In this document: piece by piece, positions 58,416 through 64,000 of the stretch
How the letters are laid out: each line of letters starts with the position of its first letter
How positions within the stretch are numbered: position 1 is the stretch's first letter
The notes under the pieces: generated by a model
What the model saw: the letters and a program-made list of their open reading frames with translations, nothing else
The model's database searches: none
What the model was told of the DNA's origin: nothing
Origin: an uncultured Acidobacteriota bacterium
GTDB lineage: Bacteria > Acidobacteriota > Thermoanaerobaculia > UBA5066 > DATFVB01
Assembly: GCA_963813155.1 (NCBI GenBank)
Contig: CAWEYG010000002.1
Coordinates: 288,001-352,000, forward strand
DNA: 64,000 nt
Direction: 5' to 3'
Translations under genes and position numbers: made by a program

Positions 58416-59417
58416 TCAATCGGGCCTCGGAACGCCGGGCAGTTCGAGCCGCGCCCGCAATCCGCCCGCGGGCGAGTCCTCGAGCGAAACGGACCCGCCA
58501 TAGAGGCCGGCGAGATCGCGCACGATCGCGAGACCGAGTCCCGACCCGTCGACCGCTTCGTCCGCCTTCACGCCCCGTTGCAGCACGGCCTCCCGGACGG
58601 AGCGATCGATTCCCGGGCCGTCGTCGTCGACGGCGACGACGAGGGTCTCGCCGGCGAGCGAGGACTCGATCGAAACTCGCGACTTCGCCCACTTGCAGGC
58701 GTTGTCGAGAACGTTGCCGAGCATTTCCTCGAGGTCCTCGCGCCGTCCCCGAAAAGCGTGCCCCCGTTCGATCGACGTCTCGATCGTCAACCCCCTGTGG
58801 GCGTGCAATCGAAGGAGAACCCGGACCAGCCCTTCGACGGGCTCGCGGATCGAGGTCTCTGCCCCGCGCACGCCTCCCGAGGCCGCCGCGCGCGCGTGGG
58901 CGAGGTGATATTCCACCTGGCGTTTCATCCGGTCGACCTGCTGGGCAATCGTCGCGGCGAGCTCGATGCGGCCCTCGGCTTCCAGCCGCTCCGCCTCGTT
59001 GGAGAGCACCGCGAGCGGGGTCTTCAACCCGTGCGCGAGATCGCCGGCCTTTGCATTCGCGGTCTCGACCGCGCGTTCTCCGTGCGCGAGCAGGGCGTTG
59101 AGCTCGTCGACGAGAGGCTGCACCTCGGCCGGATATTCGCCGCCCAGCCGGCTCTCGCGACCCTTCCTCACCCCGGCCAGCCGGAGGCGCAGCCGGTCGA
59201 ATGGAACGAGCGCTCCCCTCACGAACGAGAGTCCTGCCGCCATACACCCTCCGGCGAGAATGAGCAGGATCGCCGTGTGCAGCGCGATCGCGGGCGCCTG
59301 CCAGCGACCGTGGGTCACGGTCAGCGCGACGGCGAGAAGCATCACGAGCCCGATGGTCCAGAGCGCCGCCCCGAAGAGGATGCGGCCGCGCACCGAGGAG
59401 ACAGGAACCTGAATCAA
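58416..59417 (-). CDS. Sensor histidine kinase
   Basis: Two TM helices, LAHGLKTPL, GNVLDNACKW, DDDGPG, GSGLGL. Confidence 0.93.
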   Translation of the reverse strand: MIQVPVSSVRGRILFGAALWTIGLVMLLAVALTVTHGRWQAPAIALHTAILLILAGGCMAAGLSFVRGALVPFDRLRLRLAGVRKGRESRLGGEYPAEVQPLVDELNALLAHGERAVETANAKAGDLAHGLKTPLAVLSNEAERLEAEGRIELAATIAQQVDRMKRQVEYHLAHARAAASGGVRGAETSIREPVEGLVRVLLRLHAHRGLTIETSIERGHAFRGRREDLEEMLGNVLDNACKWAKSRVSIESSLAGETLVVAVDDDGPGIDRSVREAVLQRGVKADEAVDGSGLGLAIVRDLAGLYGGSVSLEDSPAGGLRARLELPGVPRPD

Positions 59418-60100
59418 GAGCTCTTCTCTCCGGAGGACACGCCATCGCTCTTCATCCGGTATCCGAGACCGCGCACGGTCTCGATGACGCCGGCGCCGAG
59501 CTTGCGGCGAAGACGCGCTACGAAAACCTCGATCGTGTTGGAATCGCGATCGGAGTTGAGGGAATAGATGTGGTCCGTCAGCTCGGTCTGGGGCACCGCA
59601 CGCCCGCCGTGGTGCATCAGGTAGGAGAGGACCCGCAGCTCGAGCGCGGTCAACCGGACTTCCTCGCCCCGGAGTGTGACCCTACCCGCGCGAGGGTCGA
59701 GCGTCACCGCGCCGCAGCGGAGCTCGGGAGACGGCAGGCCGCTGGCCCTCCGGATCAGGCTTCGGAGCCGAGCGAGCAGCTCCTCCATTCGAAACGGCTT
59801 CGAGAGGTAATCGTCGGCGCCCGAATCGATCCCCTGGACCTTTTCGGACCAGCTTCCCCGCGCCGTCAGAACCATCACCGGGACCTTCATGCCGGCGTCG
59901 CGCCACCGCCGAAGAATCGTCAGCCCGTCGACCTTCGGGAGGCCGAGGTCGAGCACGACGACGTCGTAGGTTTCGGTCTGCGCGAGAAAATCCGCCTTCT
60001 CGCCGTCCGCCGCGCAGTCCACCGCGTAGCCGTTCTCGCGCAGAGCGGCGGAGAGTTGCTGCGACAGGCGCGCCTCATCCTCGGCGACGAGCGCGCGCAT
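59414..60100 (-). CDS. OmpR-family response regulator
   Basis: VAEDE, VLDLGLP, GADDYLSKPF, IETVRGLGY. Confidence 0.95.
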   Translation of the reverse strand: MRALVAEDEARLSQQLSAALRENGYAVDCAADGEKADFLAQTETYDVVVLDLGLPKVDGLTILRRWRDAGMKVPVMVLTARGSWSEKVQGIDSGADDYLSKPFRMEELLARLRSLIRRASGLPSPELRCGAVTLDPRAGRVTLRGEEVRLTALELRVLSYLMHHGGRAVPQTELTDHIYSLNSDRDSNTIEVFVARLRRKLGAGVIETVRGLGYRMKSDGVSSGEKSS

Positions 60101-60217: not shown

Positions 60218-61141
60218 ATGAAGCTCAAGATCTTTGCCGTCGCGATCGCGCTCGCCGCCGCCGCGTCGGTCTCGAGAAACGCCCGTGCCGCGGGCGACCC
60301 CATTTCCGGCGAGTGGGACGTGACGTTCCGGATCGAGGGAATGACGACGCCCGCGACGTTCAAGTTCGCCCTGTCCGGCGACCGGGTCAGCGGAACCGCG
60401 GACTCCCATCACACGGGCGCGGGAACCGTTCGCGACGGGTCCTGGAAAGACGGCCGGCTCGCGATGACGCTCGACTTCGCGTCGCACGAGTCGATCGTGG
60501 TCACCGGGAGCCTCGAGGGCGAACAGCTGACCGGCGAGTTCCGAACAGAAGGAAGAGTGGGCAAATGGGACGCCCGCAAGAAACGTCCCGGCGAGCACGT
60601 TCACGCAAGCGCCGCGGCCGCGTCGCCGCACTCGGCGCCCCCCAGCCCGTACGCGCCGTACGAGCAGCTCATCGGCGAATGGGACGTCGCTCCCGAAGGC
60701 GGCGGCCCCGCGACGGCGGGCGCGGTCTTCCGGTGGGGTCCGAATCATTCGTACATCTGGACCGCCGGCACGTTGGTTCACGACGGCGTCCAGGAGCCGC
60801 ACTTCGAGGGAATGATGATGTGGAACGGCGTCCACCGGAACCTGGACGCGCTGCTCGTCCTCGACATGCGATACGGCCTCGCACAGGAACAGGGCACCTA
60901 TTCGATCGAGCCCGACGGGACGATCGTGCGCGAAATCACCGCCGTCTTTTCGGAGGGCGTGCAGCCGATGGGGCAGGAGGTCGCCGGCCCGGGCGGCGCG
61001 ACGTCGCGTTTCCGCCAGACGTTCAAGTCGCAGGGGCCGGACCGCTTTGCGACGGCCGTCCTGCGGCAGAGCGGCGACGGGTGGGTCGCCACCTTTCCGG
61101 GAAGCGATCACCTCGTGATGACGCGCCGCTCGAACAGTTAG
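60218..61141 (+). CDS. Exported hypothetical protein with two beta-rich domains
   Basis: AAGGAGG RBS, signal peptide, two 'GEWDV' domain starts. Confidence 0.75.
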   Translation: MKLKIFAVAIALAAAASVSRNARAAGDPISGEWDVTFRIEGMTTPATFKFALSGDRVSGTADSHHTGAGTVRDGSWKDGRLAMTLDFASHESIVVTGSLEGEQLTGEFRTEGRVGKWDARKKRPGEHVHASAAAASPHSAPPSPYAPYEQLIGEWDVAPEGGGPATAGAVFRWGPNHSYIWTAGTLVHDGVQEPHFEGMMMWNGVHRNLDALLVLDMRYGLAQEQGTYSIEPDGTIVREITAVFSEGVQPMGQEVAGPGGATSRFRQTFKSQGPDRFATAVLRQSGDGWVATFPGSDHLVMTRRSNS

Positions 61142-63025
61142 CGCCGAGCGGAAGGCTTCTTTGAGACGAGGGCGGCGAGCGTCGCCTCCGCCTTTTCGTG
61201 GAGATCGGGGGGAGCGCCGTAGAAAGCTCCCGCGGCGCTCCCCTCCCGATCGAAGAGAAAGAGCGTCGGCACGGCGCTCACGTCGCCGAACAGGCCGACC
61301 CGTTCCGGCGTGCCCATCGCAAACGTCAGCGGAACCTTCATCCCGCGCGCGACCTTGCGTACGTCGGCTTCCTCCGATTGGACGGCGAGGGCGAGCACGG
61401 CGATTCGATCGCCGTATTTCTTCTTCAACTCGCCGAGCCAGCCGAGCGTGCTGCGGCAGGGCGGGCACCACGTCGCCCACATCTCGACGATCACCGCGCG
61501 GCCCGCGAGATCTCTTCGCGAAAGGCTGCGTCCCTCCAGATCCGTCCACGATACCGAGGGCAGGCTCGCGGCGGTCTGCATTTTTCCCGGCGCCGCCTCC
61601 GCGCGCGCCGCGTCTTTCTTTCCCACCAGAATCAGGTCGATCATTCGCGAAAGGTCCGCGCGAAAGCGCTCGTGGCTCTCGGCGCTCTTGAACGGAATGT
61701 ATTTGCCGCTCGCCTTCGGATCCATGTTGAAGAAATCCTTCGGCGTGGCCACGAGCACGTCGTCGACGAAGATCACCGGATAGAACGTCACGCCGAAACG
61801 CTTCGCGAGCTCCGACGCGCCGTAGTTTTCCGAAACGAACCGCGCTCTTCCCCGGTAGTCGTGAACGACGCTCTCGGCCAGCAAACTTGCCGGATCGGAG
61901 AGATTTCAGGTGTAGGGCCAGCGAACCAGGGTGACGGTGACCTCGGGCGCGGGCCTCGGCGCAGCGGGCGAAGCGGGTTCGAGGGCGGCGAAGTACCGGG
62001 GAAGGACGTCCCCCGCGATCGCCGCCGCGGCCGGCGCGTCCGCTCCGGGGGCCGCTCCCGCGACCTCGGCCTGCGCGGATTCCAGAAACAAGCGCCCGAG
62101 GGAATCGTCGACCCGTCCCGCGGCGAGACGCGCGTCGAGCTCCCGAAGGCGCGCCGAGAGAACCTCTCGGCCGACGGCCGTTCCGGCTCCGCGCAACAGA
62201 GAGAAACGCTGCGCGGCCTGGAGATAGCGAAGCAGCGCTCCGTACCGCAGTCCGGCCGCGTCGAGCTCGCGCGCCTCCTTCAGCGTCGAGCTGGCGGCGA
62301 TGAACTCGGCGTGCCGGTCGATCGAGGCCGGAGGCCGATAAGCCTCCAGCATCTCGCCCTCCAGGGAATCCAGCTCGGGCCCGAGGCCGCGCACGGAAGG
62401 CGGGTCCGGCCGGACGGCCGGTGAAAGCGTCCGGCTGAACATCACGAACTCCCTCTGCGCCTCCGCGAGGCCGAGATAGAAGAGACCCTGCGAAGGCATC
62501 GTGTTGCGCCCGTATTCGAGGCTGCTGTCGTAGTAAACCCGGACCTGGGAGAGCGCCGCTTCGCCGAGCGCGCGGGCCGCCGCGGGGGCGACCGCGTTCA
62601 GCGCGTCGGAATCGGGCTTCCCGAGAGAGTCGCGCAGGACACCGCCCATGCGCGTCCATTCTGCTTCGAGACCGCGAACATCCTTGACCTCATGCCGCCG
62701 GGGGGCTCTCGACGTAGGTCGCCGCCGCGAGGTAGGCCCTTGCCGAAGCGAGCCGCTGCAGCGCCAGCAAGCGCCGGCCATCGCGCAGCGCCTGCTCCGC
62801 TCCCGCGATCAAGGGCTCGCTCGCGCCCTTGATCTGGATCCACGTCTCGTCCTTCGACGTGTTTTCCCGCAGCAATTTCGACCAGCGCGAGACTTCCCGC
62901 GCGACGGGATCCGCCGGCTCCACGACGCCCGTCGCGGCCATCGACGCGAGCACGATTGCGCCCAGAGCGCCTACGACCGATGCGGCGAACGGGACACCAT
63001 GCAACCGCCGCTTCGCGAATCTCAC
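61138..63025 (-). CDS. Candidate exported selenoprotein: helical domain, thioredoxin-fold domain (UxxS), TlpA-like domain (WCPPC); one frameshift near 62700
   Basis: ORF 61906..62781 ends RWPYT-TGA and continues in frame (NLSDPAS) into ORF 61138..61884; a SECIS-like hairpin follows the TGA; signal peptide in ORF 62690..63025. Confidence 0.72.
61871..61905 (-). promoter_or_regulatory. Putative bacterial SECIS element
   Basis: UGA-AAU-CUCUC-CGAU-CCGGCA-AGUU-UGCUGG-CC-GAGAG; the apical loop begins after 18 nt from the UGA and has G then U. Confidence 0.65.
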
Positions 63026-63056
63026 GGAATCAGCGTGACACAGGAGTCCGCGATTC

Positions 63057-63075
63057 CGCTGTCAAGATCCTGCGC
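63057..63075 (-). promoter_or_regulatory. Shared 19-bp promoter motif
   Basis: GCGCAGGATCTTGACAGCG, 19 nt, CACGCT, 6 nt, GTG start at 63025. Confidence 0.65.
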
Positions 63076-63078
63076 CTC

Positions 63079-63375
63079 CTACCCCCCCGCGATCGCCCCG
63101 ACGATCAGGAACGGCTCGGTCCCCGCCGCGACGGCGTCGGGCAGCGGGGCATCCGGCGAGTCGTGGGACAGGTCCTCGCCGCACGCGAAGAACCGCACGA
63201 AAGGCCGGCGTTTCTCCGTCACGTGATCGCGGATCGTGCCGCGCAGCATCGGGTAGCCGGATTCGAGCGCCGCGAGGACGGATCTCTGGGTCGCGGGGCC
63301 TTCGACCCGAAGCTCCAGTTCTCCGCCGACGCGCGCCAGCTCCCTCAGGTGAGGCGGGATCACGACTCGAATCAT
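63079..63375 (-). CDS. MoaD/ThiS ubiquitin-like protein
   Basis: [14 protein letters not shown]...RRPFVRFF...IVGAIAGG with C-terminal Gly-Gly. Confidence 0.9.
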
Positions 63376-64000
63376 CGAAGTGTCTGAACCTCCACGGACA
63401 GCACCGCCGGAAGGTCCCGGACGATCGGTCCCCAGCTGTCTCCCCCGTCGCGGGAAGCGTAGACCTGCCCTCCGGTAGTCCCGAAGTAGACTCCGCAGGA
63501 ATCGAGAGAGTCGACGGCCATCGCATCGCGCAGCACGTTGACGTAGCAGTCCTTTTGCGGCAGGCCCTTCGTGAGAGCCTCCCATTCGTTGCCGCCCGAA
63601 CGGCTCCGATAGACGCGGAGCTTTCCCTCGGGGGGGAAATGCTCTCCGTCGCTCTTGATGGGGACGACGTACACCGTTTCGGGCTCGTGCGCGTGAACGT
63701 CGACGACGAACCCGAAGTCGGTCGGCAGGTTTCCGCTCACTTCTGTCCAGGAATCTCCCGCGTCGTCGCTCCGAAGGACGTCCCAGTGCTTCTGCATGAA
63801 CAGGACGTTCGGCCGGGAGCGGTGCTGGGCGATCCGGTGCACGCAGTGGCCGACCTCGGCGTTCGGATCGGGGATGTACTGCGAGTGGAGCCCCTTGTTG
63901 ATCGGCTTCCACGTCTTCCCGGCGTCGTCGCTCCGGAACGCGCCCGCGGCCGAGATCGCGACGAAGATCCGGTTCGGATCGGCCGGATCGAGGAGGACCG
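63372..64000 (-). CDS. BNR/Asp-box beta-propeller (sialidase-like) protein, 3' part
   Basis: [25 protein letters not shown] repeats; ATGA overlap with the MoaD-like gene. Confidence 0.88.

Follow-up and report, generated by a model that had tools for sequence, protein, structure and literature searches.

A predicted exported selenoprotein family of Acidobacteriota combining a new helical domain with a putative selenocysteine-bearing thioredoxin fold and a TlpA-like domain

The prokaryotic selenoprotein families set out in Table 1 of a 2026 review number 119 (PMC13188914). Among them, selenocysteine (Sec, U) occurs in the arrangement UxxS in rhodanese form 1, arsenate reductase and Prx-like cd02970, and the same table gives as other thioredoxin-fold examples a GPX-like UxxT family, a thiol-disulfide isomerase-like UxxC family (cd02966) and the UGC-containing TlpA (PMC13188914). 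The selenocysteine insertion sequence (SECIS) of the E. coli type has been described as an upper stem-loop of nucleotides (nt) 15-31 at a distance of 11 nt from the UGA, whose loop contains G23 and U24 and which has a bulged U17 (PMC8659212). Here we describe a locus in a stretch of 64,000 nt from an uncultured Acidobacteriota bacterium (contig CAWEYG010000002.1; the whole stretch is called the window below). Its minus strand at 61138-63025 very probably carries one gene for a predicted exported selenoprotein of about 628 residues, in which a UGA would be recoded through SelB and a SECIS, with a four-part architecture for which we propose a redox mechanism working in cis. The apparent stop codon inside this gene almost certainly encodes Sec, as judged from the comparison of related sequences. 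Like the catalogued thioredoxin-fold selenoproteins, the predicted protein has its Sec at the N-terminus of helix alpha1 within U-x-x-S/C, it has Cys homologues, and a coding-region SECIS candidate follows the UGA (PMC13188914).

The gene begins with a GTG start codon (63023-63025) and ends with a TAA (61138-61140). As assembled, it is distributed over several open reading frames (ORFs), whose sizes in amino acids (aa) are given in the following lines.

61138..63025, minus strand: whole selenoprotein gene in the intact-allele reading, about 628 codons, from ORFs, translations and continuous relatives
62690-63025, minus strand: ORF of 111 aa with a signal-peptide-like N-terminus, from the ORF list
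61906-62781, minus strand: ORF of 291 aa ending in ...VTLVRWPYT, from the ORF list
61906..61908, minus strand: UGA predicted to be read as selenocysteine in the motif T-U-N-L-S, from the conserved TGA column and the Cys found there in the proteins P0003-P0007
61138-61884, minus strand: TlpA-like ORF of 248 aa with a TTG start, from the ORF list
62693, minus strand: one extra base that shifts the frame, most likely an assembly error or a minor variant, from contig and relative comparison

An initial annotation of this DNA, made from its letters alone, had pointed to an in-frame TGA at 61906-61908. The plus strand reads TCA at these positions and the coding strand accordingly TGA, and reading through it fuses the 291-aa and 248-aa ORFs in frame into ...EVTVTLVRWPYT-U-NLSDPASLLAESVVHDYRGRARFVSENYGASELAKRFGVTFYPVIFVD..., which reproduces exactly the peptide quoted in that annotation.

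Searches with the read-through protein as query show that the TGA is a property of the whole family. The gene is present in 17 of 41 closely related genomes (the set includes the genome of the window itself); each match crosses both sides of the site with a TGA inside, and the TGA occupies the identical column in all 17 loci, between RWP[YF]T and N[LV]SDPASLL. A sample of the class yielded the gene in 63 of 401 genomes. All rows covering the site have a TGA there; the three rows lacking a TGA sit wholly to one side of it. Similarly, 23 of 401 genomes in a sample of the phylum carry the gene, all 23 site-spanning rows have the TGA, and two rows without it sit N-terminal to the site. Taking the Acidobacteriota assemblies together, TGA follows RWP[YF][TS] in 77/77 motif-bearing locus rows, and neither TAA nor TAG was ever found there. 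A scan of one genome per species contributed about 33 further family loci. These come from metagenome-assembled genomes (MAGs) labelled Thermoanaerobaculia, Vicinamibacteria, Terriglobia (including Ca. Angelobacter, Ca. Acidoferrum and Bryobacteraceae) and Pyrinomonadaceae, and a few are labelled Eisenbacteria, Planctomycetota or Heliomicrobium. Two metagenome contigs (L150 and L151) add two more TGA-bearing loci. Four loci are uninformative: L097 contains 100 N, L100 and L106 begin within the TlpA part at a contig end, and L104 is a match to the TlpA domain only. All counts include the unpublished genomes G002 and G008, without which each count falls by at most 2 and nothing else changes. The initial annotation had proposed to look for a conserved TGA after WPYT and for homology on both sides of it, and had named homologues with TAA or TAG and unlinked halves as evidence to the contrary. 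The TGA is present in every relative covering the site, the relatives run without a break from signal peptide to TlpA domain, and no TAA or TAG homologues or unlinked halves were seen among the relatives examined. As a side observation, one Thermoanaerobaculia MAG contig (L071) bears two tandem copies of the family (148-195 and 1934-1981), both with the TGA and with a hairpin of the GGUC-loop form described below.

A protein-collection search with the site region returned 452 matches at E <= 0.001 among 5376 candidates, the best 120 of which were examined. Five of them span the site and have Cys at the Sec column, namely P0003 (621 aa), P0004, P0005, P0006 (673 aa) and P0007 (575 aa), so that Cys-containing homologues, another expectation of the initial annotation, do exist. 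They read RWP[YF][TSK]-C-[NE][LF]SDPA. When 56 Sec and 4 Cys forms were placed in a quick tree rooted at its midpoint, the Cys forms came out scattered, and the branches starred in it force at least three changes; as far as this quick tree goes, the scatter would fit a repeated replacement of Sec by Cys. No Cys-form locus appeared in the species-genome contig scan, in the single metagenome scan (run with poor patterns) or in the phylum sample, where the full-length relatives are Sec/TGA forms only.

The remaining database entries bear on an alternative in which the TGA is a true stop and the locus consists of two genes, one for a secreted helical hypothetical protein and one for a TlpA-like protein starting from the TTG at 61884. 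Public gene calls are split precisely along these lines. Of the 120 matches listed, about 108 are annotated as 'hypothetical proteins', with lengths of 325-453 aa (mostly about 345-375 aa); they hold only the part before the site and cover at most 25% of the query region. All seven N-terminal halves that were retrieved (7/7) end exactly in ...RWPYT. However, the downstream gene calls begin at differing residues and have no conserved start, and the TTG lies within the arm of a hairpin. Furthermore, a stretch of about 110 residues past the TGA is conserved in the same frame throughout the relatives and makes up the first half of a predicted thioredoxin fold whose strand beta1 precedes the TGA. 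The stop is moreover always TGA in the 77 rows mentioned above, and the Cys forms are continuous across the site. We therefore regard a true stop as very improbable. The split itself had been foreseen in the initial annotation, and the public calls indeed consist of a hypothetical N-terminal half and a thioredoxin/TlpA fragment. Three further matches (P0008, P0010 and P0013) were rejected as read-through forms, as they cross the site solely via another open high-GC frame (...RWSAGPTPETS...). Chimeric gene calls of this type constitute a second kind of mis-annotation in the family.

Directly 3' of the UGA, a stem-loop was found that is a candidate for the SECIS. Positions within it are counted from the U of the UGA as nt 1.

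61878..61893, minus strand: candidate SECIS upper stem-loop, nt 16-31, arms CCGGCA/UGCUGG, loop A22 G23 U24 U25
61871..61902, minus strand: lower stem, nt 7-11 with nt 34-38 (CUCUC/GAGAG), which folds in the window and is poorly conserved

The hairpin CCGGCA-AGUU-UGCUGG, its G-U in the loop and the spacing of 18 nt from the UGA to the start of the loop were all described in the initial annotation and were all recovered at nt 16-31. The annotation had also placed the TTG start inside the hairpin: the TTG at 61882-61884, used by gene callers as the start of the TlpA-like ORF, corresponds to nt 25-27 in the 3' arm. Its lower stem CUCUC/GAGAG fared less well, as it does form in the window but is poorly conserved. 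Across 65 distinct 48-nt stretches beginning at the UGA, 63.7% of cells are paired in the register 7-11/34-38 and 77.4% in the register 9-11/36-38, and the lower stem was rejected as a conserved part of the SECIS after both registers had been tried.

The upper stem-loop behaves very differently from its lower counterpart in the same 65 sequences. C16, C17, G19, C20, A21, G23, U24, U26, G27, C28, U29 and G30 are invariant in 65/65, and the pair 18-29 occurs as G-U in 45 sequences and as A-U in the other 20. At positions 22 and 25, 50 sequences have A..U and 15 have G..C, with no mixed combination among them; this is the compensatory change that the initial annotation had hoped to find in a covarying hairpin. 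The change at position 22 turns Ser into Gly and that at position 25 is synonymous in a Leu codon. Since the GGUC loops occupy several separate branches of the tree (L150 as opposed to L072, L073, L077, L053/54, L057/61 and L085), the double change at 22/25 seems to have arisen more than once. Over the helix 16-22/25-31, 98.9% of cells are paired; the observed covariation score was reached by none of 500 column shuffles, and sliding the partner by 1-3 columns lowered pairing from 92.5% to at most 49.4%. Codon usage was compared with a control of 41 gene columns that hold a conserved four-fold-degenerate residue or Leu. The four columns belonging to the hairpin have codon entropies of 0.89, 0, 0.86 and 0 bits, against 1.11-1.89 bits in the other 37, and the Ala at +6 is encoded by GCA in 56/56 sequences, with GCA used in only 1-4 of 56 at other conserved Ala columns. 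By this comparative evidence, selection acts on the RNA of the hairpin itself, and such frozen synonymous sites speak against a true stop as well. Like the E. coli fdhF-type SECIS, the candidate element is a stem-loop within the coding sequence directly 3' of the UGA (nt 16-31 here and 15-31 in E. coli), and it carries G23 and U24 in its apical loop under the same numbering (PMC8659212). Because of this resemblance to the E. coli type, expression in E. coli may be feasible.

The genome to which the window belongs (3.8 Mb in 23 contigs, 90.8% complete) encodes the machinery for Sec insertion, which the initial annotation had suggested looking for. Its tRNA-Sec scores 71.3 bits against a gathering score of 47 and is called tRNA-SeC with the anticodon tca by ARAGORN; selB reaches 351.2 bits (cut-off 242.25), selA 456.5 bits (cut-off 267.9) and selD 331.9 bits (cut-off 125; G000:C3:921620-922561, locus L018), so that all four lie above their curated cut-offs. 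With selA, selB, selD and tRNA-Sec in one genome, the organism resembles E. coli in having what SelB-dependent recoding uses. The selD match contains one in-frame TGA, and for this reason the selenophosphate synthetase of the window organism is probably a selenoprotein itself. Beyond this genome, selA was detected in 77 of 79 gene-carrying genomes; it was missing from two draft assemblies, one of 700 contigs and one of 30, each 92% complete.

These findings bear on a further alternative, in which the UGA is decoded without selenium, either through near-cognate read-through (as Trp or Cys) or through a lineage-wide reassignment of TGA. The rare Cys forms lend it something, in that Cys can functionally stand in for Sec there. 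On the other hand, TGA serves as an ordinary stop in these organisms, with 8/17 listed homologues terminating in TGA, and the genome has the complete Sec machinery. In addition, the loop presents G23/U24 of the SelB type at the canonical distance (PMC8659212). We consider decoding without selenium highly unlikely. Comparison of the relatives thus supports the selenoprotein reading, in which a single gene contains a UGA that appears to be under selection jointly with a SelB-type RNA hairpin in genomes with Sec machinery.

The predicted protein consists of a signal peptide and three domains, the limits of which are given below.

62933..63025, minus strand: signal peptide of about 31 residues with a basic n-region and then the hydrophobic stretch VPFAASVVGALGAIVLASMAA, from reading by eye
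61954..62932, minus strand: all-alpha domain of about 300 residues with some 13-15 helices and no recognised family, from an AlphaFold2 model
61618..61941, minus strand: predicted Sec-bearing thioredoxin-fold domain with the order beta1, U, alpha1, beta2, alpha2, cis-Pro (invariant YP), beta3, beta4, alpha3, from the model and invariant residues
61204..61569, minus strand: TlpA/ResA-like thioredoxin-fold domain with WCPPC, from Pfam and Foldseek, the CPPC codons being at 61456-61467

A full-length AlphaFold2 model was obtained for the Cys form P0003 from 28 sequences, with a predicted local distance difference test score (pLDDT) of 85.4 and a predicted template modelling score (pTM) of 0.77. 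It comprises a disordered signal at residues 1-30 (pLDDT < 50), helices at 38-344, a beta-alpha-beta-alpha-beta-beta-alpha unit at 359-466 and a second thioredoxin fold at 487-620. The order proposed in the initial annotation, an exported protein with a helical part, a thioredoxin domain with UxxS and a TlpA domain with CxxC, agrees with both the AlphaFold models and the Pfam matches. Three N-terminal halves (P0018, P0032 and P0121) start with a lipobox-like ...LLAAC or ...MLAC that replaces the plain signal peptide, and part of the family may, on this reading of the sequences, be lipid-anchored.

The helical domain modelled alone from 56 sequences gave a pLDDT of 94.7 and a pTM of 0.92 and contains only helices. 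It has no Pfam or NCBIfam match, its best E-value in a PDB profile search was 0.53, Foldseek returned nothing at E <= 0.001, and the ESM Atlas returned just the family's own truncated N-terminal halves. Hits from VIA-align were discarded: the Z scores of up to 10.7 concern only generic three-helix bundles over residues 8-85 and lie in a range common for helical models.

The elements of the Sec domain in the P0003 model are strand 359-365, C370, helix 373-385, strand 391-397, helix 402-406, strands 414-417 and 420-423, and helix 448-466. Helix 373-385 is closely preceded by C370, the Cys/Sec position, and strand 414-417 by the invariant Y412-P413. Hence, as modelled, the domain has the topology of thioredoxin, with the nucleophile at the N-terminus of alpha1 and a predicted cis-Pro before beta3. 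Twenty-six positions are invariant in 35 sequences, including T-L-V-R-W-P..T-U...D-P-A.L-L and Y-P. Two relatives (L085:3955-4308 and L094:1741-2094) have U-x-x-C in place of U-x-x-S, in the forms U-N-L-C and U-H-L-C, each a complete UxxC redox motif; this would fit a Sec motif derived from a CxxC redox site. The nearest named ESM clusters of this domain are thioredoxin families (0.85-0.87), which we take as a lead only. No Pfam or NCBIfam match to it was found at E <= 0.1-1.

Pfam and NCBIfam recognise the C-terminal domain only, through the Redoxin, AhpC-TSA and Thioredoxin families. The Pfam scores are 36.1 bits for Redoxin (cut-off 26.6) and 35.8 bits for AhpC-TSA (cut-off 26). Foldseek aligned the domain to ResA, CcmG, DsbF and TlpA-type structures (4nmu, 1su9 and others) with E-values down to 5.7e-8 and template modelling scores, normalised to the target, of 0.83-0.87. 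The NCBIfam models for named enzymes stayed far under their cut-offs (ResA subfamily 58.4 versus 170 bits, TlpA equivalog 48 versus 230, DsbE 25 versus 123), and judged by these sequence scores the domain is TlpA-like and not an orthologue of any named enzyme.

Several observations weigh against the selenoprotein reading. The fold energy of the hairpin in the window, -13.6 kcal/mol with a z of -1.57 and 14 of 200 shuffles as good, is unremarkable alone, which is a point for a true stop; the significance of the hairpin therefore rests on the comparative evidence. An Rfam scan of 61700-62000 gave no match at E <= 10. Unlike the fdhF-type element of E. coli, the candidate has no bulged U17, as position 17 is a C paired with G30 in 65/65 sequences (PMC8659212), and it further differs in its loop (AGUU or GGUC), in its poorly conserved lower stem and in the missing Rfam match. 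The 22-25 'pair' would close a loop of 2 nt and may instead be a non-canonical contact. The Cys of the Cys forms was taken from database gene calls. As regards the machinery, of 38 sampled relatives without the gene, 37 have selA as well, and because selA is near-universal in the class, its co-occurrence with the gene is consistent with the reading but not discriminating. As regards the fold of the Sec domain, a PDB profile search gave weak matches to protein disulfide isomerases and thioredoxins around the cis-Pro loop with E-values of 0.1-0.5 and none below 0.03, and hhalign of this domain against the protein's own TlpA domain reached a probability of 19.8%, and this just over the cis-Pro loop. 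A comparison of 35 loci revealed no conserved neighbour (the largest cluster comprises 6 loci), and the context consequently offers no clue to function or substrate. Among the read-run differences listed, there is no base difference at 61906-61908, which is weak support for the TGA and not proof. Overall, we infer Sec insertion at the UGA from the comparison of relatives and from the machinery encoded in the genome. Finally, in the window as assembled the 111-aa N-terminal ORF and the 291-aa main ORF lie in different frames.

This last point is also what would be expected if the family were a selenoprotein family but the copy in the window a real pseudogene, the shift at 62693 being genuine and only a short signal-peptide fragment or nothing being made. 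The extra base lies outside any long homopolymer and is hence not a classic long-read error. Against this stands a contig from run X1 (record 8), 99%-alike to the window, which spans 62576-63100 with 4 other letters and omits one base at 62693. X1 is possibly the sample behind the window assembly, so its contig is not independent biology, yet an intact version exists. Contigs from runs X3 and X4, of a relative about 93% alike, are a net one base shorter at the same spot, and the protein P0015, which is 95% identical over a BLAST match covering 25% of the query region, reads ...AATYVESPAAGRVKDLRGLEAEW... straight through it. The sequence past the shift has no more stops and retains every invariant residue as well as the Sec codon and the hairpin. 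Omitting the base at 62693 joins the N-terminal and main ORFs into the protein of about 628 aa. We hold a pseudogene to be unlikely, and the break is most likely a one-base assembly error or a minor variant rather than a property of the family. The initial annotation had flagged the reads near 62700 as suspicious, and the one-base frame error or variant at 62693 justifies this suspicion. Its claim of one protein of about 630 aa over 61138-63025 stands for the length, once this base is omitted; as far as the frame in the window is concerned, it is broken.

With the selenoprotein reading retained, the question arises how the protein relates to known families. The motif RWPYT-U-NLSDP, the helical domain and a second, intact CxxC domain in the same chain occur in none of the 119 families of Table 1 (PMC13188914). 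The family is likewise not mentioned in passages of the main texts on deep-Sep (PMC12013277) and BSepDB (PMC13326102), and a full-text literature search turned up no paper on such a family. Unlike for the catalogued thioredoxin-fold selenoproteins, whose models do not cover the present Sec domain, the Pfam and NCBIfam matches fall on the TlpA domain only. With respect to the UxxS families, TIGR00014 (arsenate reductase) and PF00581 (rhodanese) are absent from the Pfam/NCBIfam matches of the protein, and Prx-like cd02970 was compared only through Pfam AhpC-TSA/Redoxin, which cover the CPPC domain and not the Sec domain. The protein also differs from the UGC-containing TlpA (WAxxUGC, NF041054), whose model scores 26.8 bits where 300 are required and touches just the CPPC domain, in which there is no UGA. 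It shares with TlpA, ResA and CcmG (DsbE) the C-terminal Redoxin/AhpC-TSA signature, the WCPPC, the predicted export and a CcdA/DsbD-type carrier in the genome (180.8 bits in the window genome), but unlike in these proteins, the TlpA-like domain comes third of three domains in a chain of about 630 aa, and the predicted Sec lies in another domain. We conclude that, within the well-known thioredoxin-fold selenoproteins, this is a new family whose arrangement of three domains is unusual and whose helical domain is new. The initial annotation had not recognised the architecture as a described family, which agrees with its absence from Table 1 (PMC13188914) and with the lack of a Pfam or NCBIfam model on the first two domains.

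A mechanism can be proposed for the selenoprotein with this architecture. The UGA at 61906-61908 would be recoded by SelB with Sec-tRNA(Sec), recruited by the hairpin at nt 16-31 through its presented G23/U24. The product would combine the signal peptide, the helical domain of about 300 aa, the thioredoxin fold with a Sec nucleophile in U-x-x-S (U-x-x-C in the two relatives) and the TlpA/ResA-like domain with WCPPC. Once in the periplasm, the selenolate would attack an oxidised substrate, which may be a disulfide or sulfenate of a client protein or a peroxide; the helical domain may hold this substrate in place. The CPPC of the TlpA-like domain would act in cis to resolve the Se-S or Se-OH intermediate so formed, and would then be re-reduced by the membrane carrier CcdA/DsbD encoded in the genome. 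The substrate and the recycling in cis are inferred. It is possible, though doubtful, that the protein is an uncatalogued self-recycling periplasmic selenoenzyme in which a monoselenol U-x-x-S fold acts on oxidised envelope proteins or peroxides presented by the new helical domain and is regenerated in cis by the CPPC with electrons from CcdA/DsbD. The logic would be that of periplasmic fusions between a TlpA-like domain and a catalytic redox domain, for example the thioredoxin-like domain of Neisseria PilB/MsrAB, in which a TlpA-like CxxC domain supplied with electrons by DsbD/CcdA recycles the catalytic domain in cis. The present protein differs in having a Sec-bearing thioredoxin fold instead of an Msr domain and in the order of its domains, and the analogy is functional only.

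Several hundred copies of the gene are present in public databases cut in two, as a hypothetical protein of about 345-375 aa and a thioredoxin/TlpA fragment with an arbitrary start, and recognising the Sec codon would mend these split entries across a major soil phylum. The family extends the prokaryotic selenoproteome beyond the 119 families of Table 1 (PMC13188914), and no Pfam or NCBIfam release-20 model matches its Sec or helical domain. A Sec centre and a classical CxxC in one predicted exported chain, along with a confidently modelled new helical fold, would make a good test case for the cooperation of selenium and sulfur in periplasmic redox reactions. If the proposal is true, the spread of the family over several classes of soil Acidobacteriota means that it may represent a main use of selenium in these abundant bacteria.

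Around the gene in the window, a gene for an OmpR-type response regulator (Response_reg and Trans_reg_C) lies at 59414-60100 on the minus strand, followed by a convergent ORF of about 300 aa without a Pfam match (60245-61141, plus strand) that ends at 61141 beside the stop of the selenoprotein gene. On the other side, beyond a small ORF, a BNR/Sortilin-Vps10-like gene (63372-63998, minus strand) runs off the window. These neighbours were considered by Pfam as possible partners, and neither the BNR/Sortilin-like gene nor the OmpR-type regulator suggested a link to the selenoprotein gene. The small ORF (97 aa, 63079-63372, minus strand) is situated directly upstream of the gene on the same strand, has no Pfam match and ends in ...AIAGG, a Gly-Gly end that presumably resembles those of ubiquitin-like sulfur carriers.

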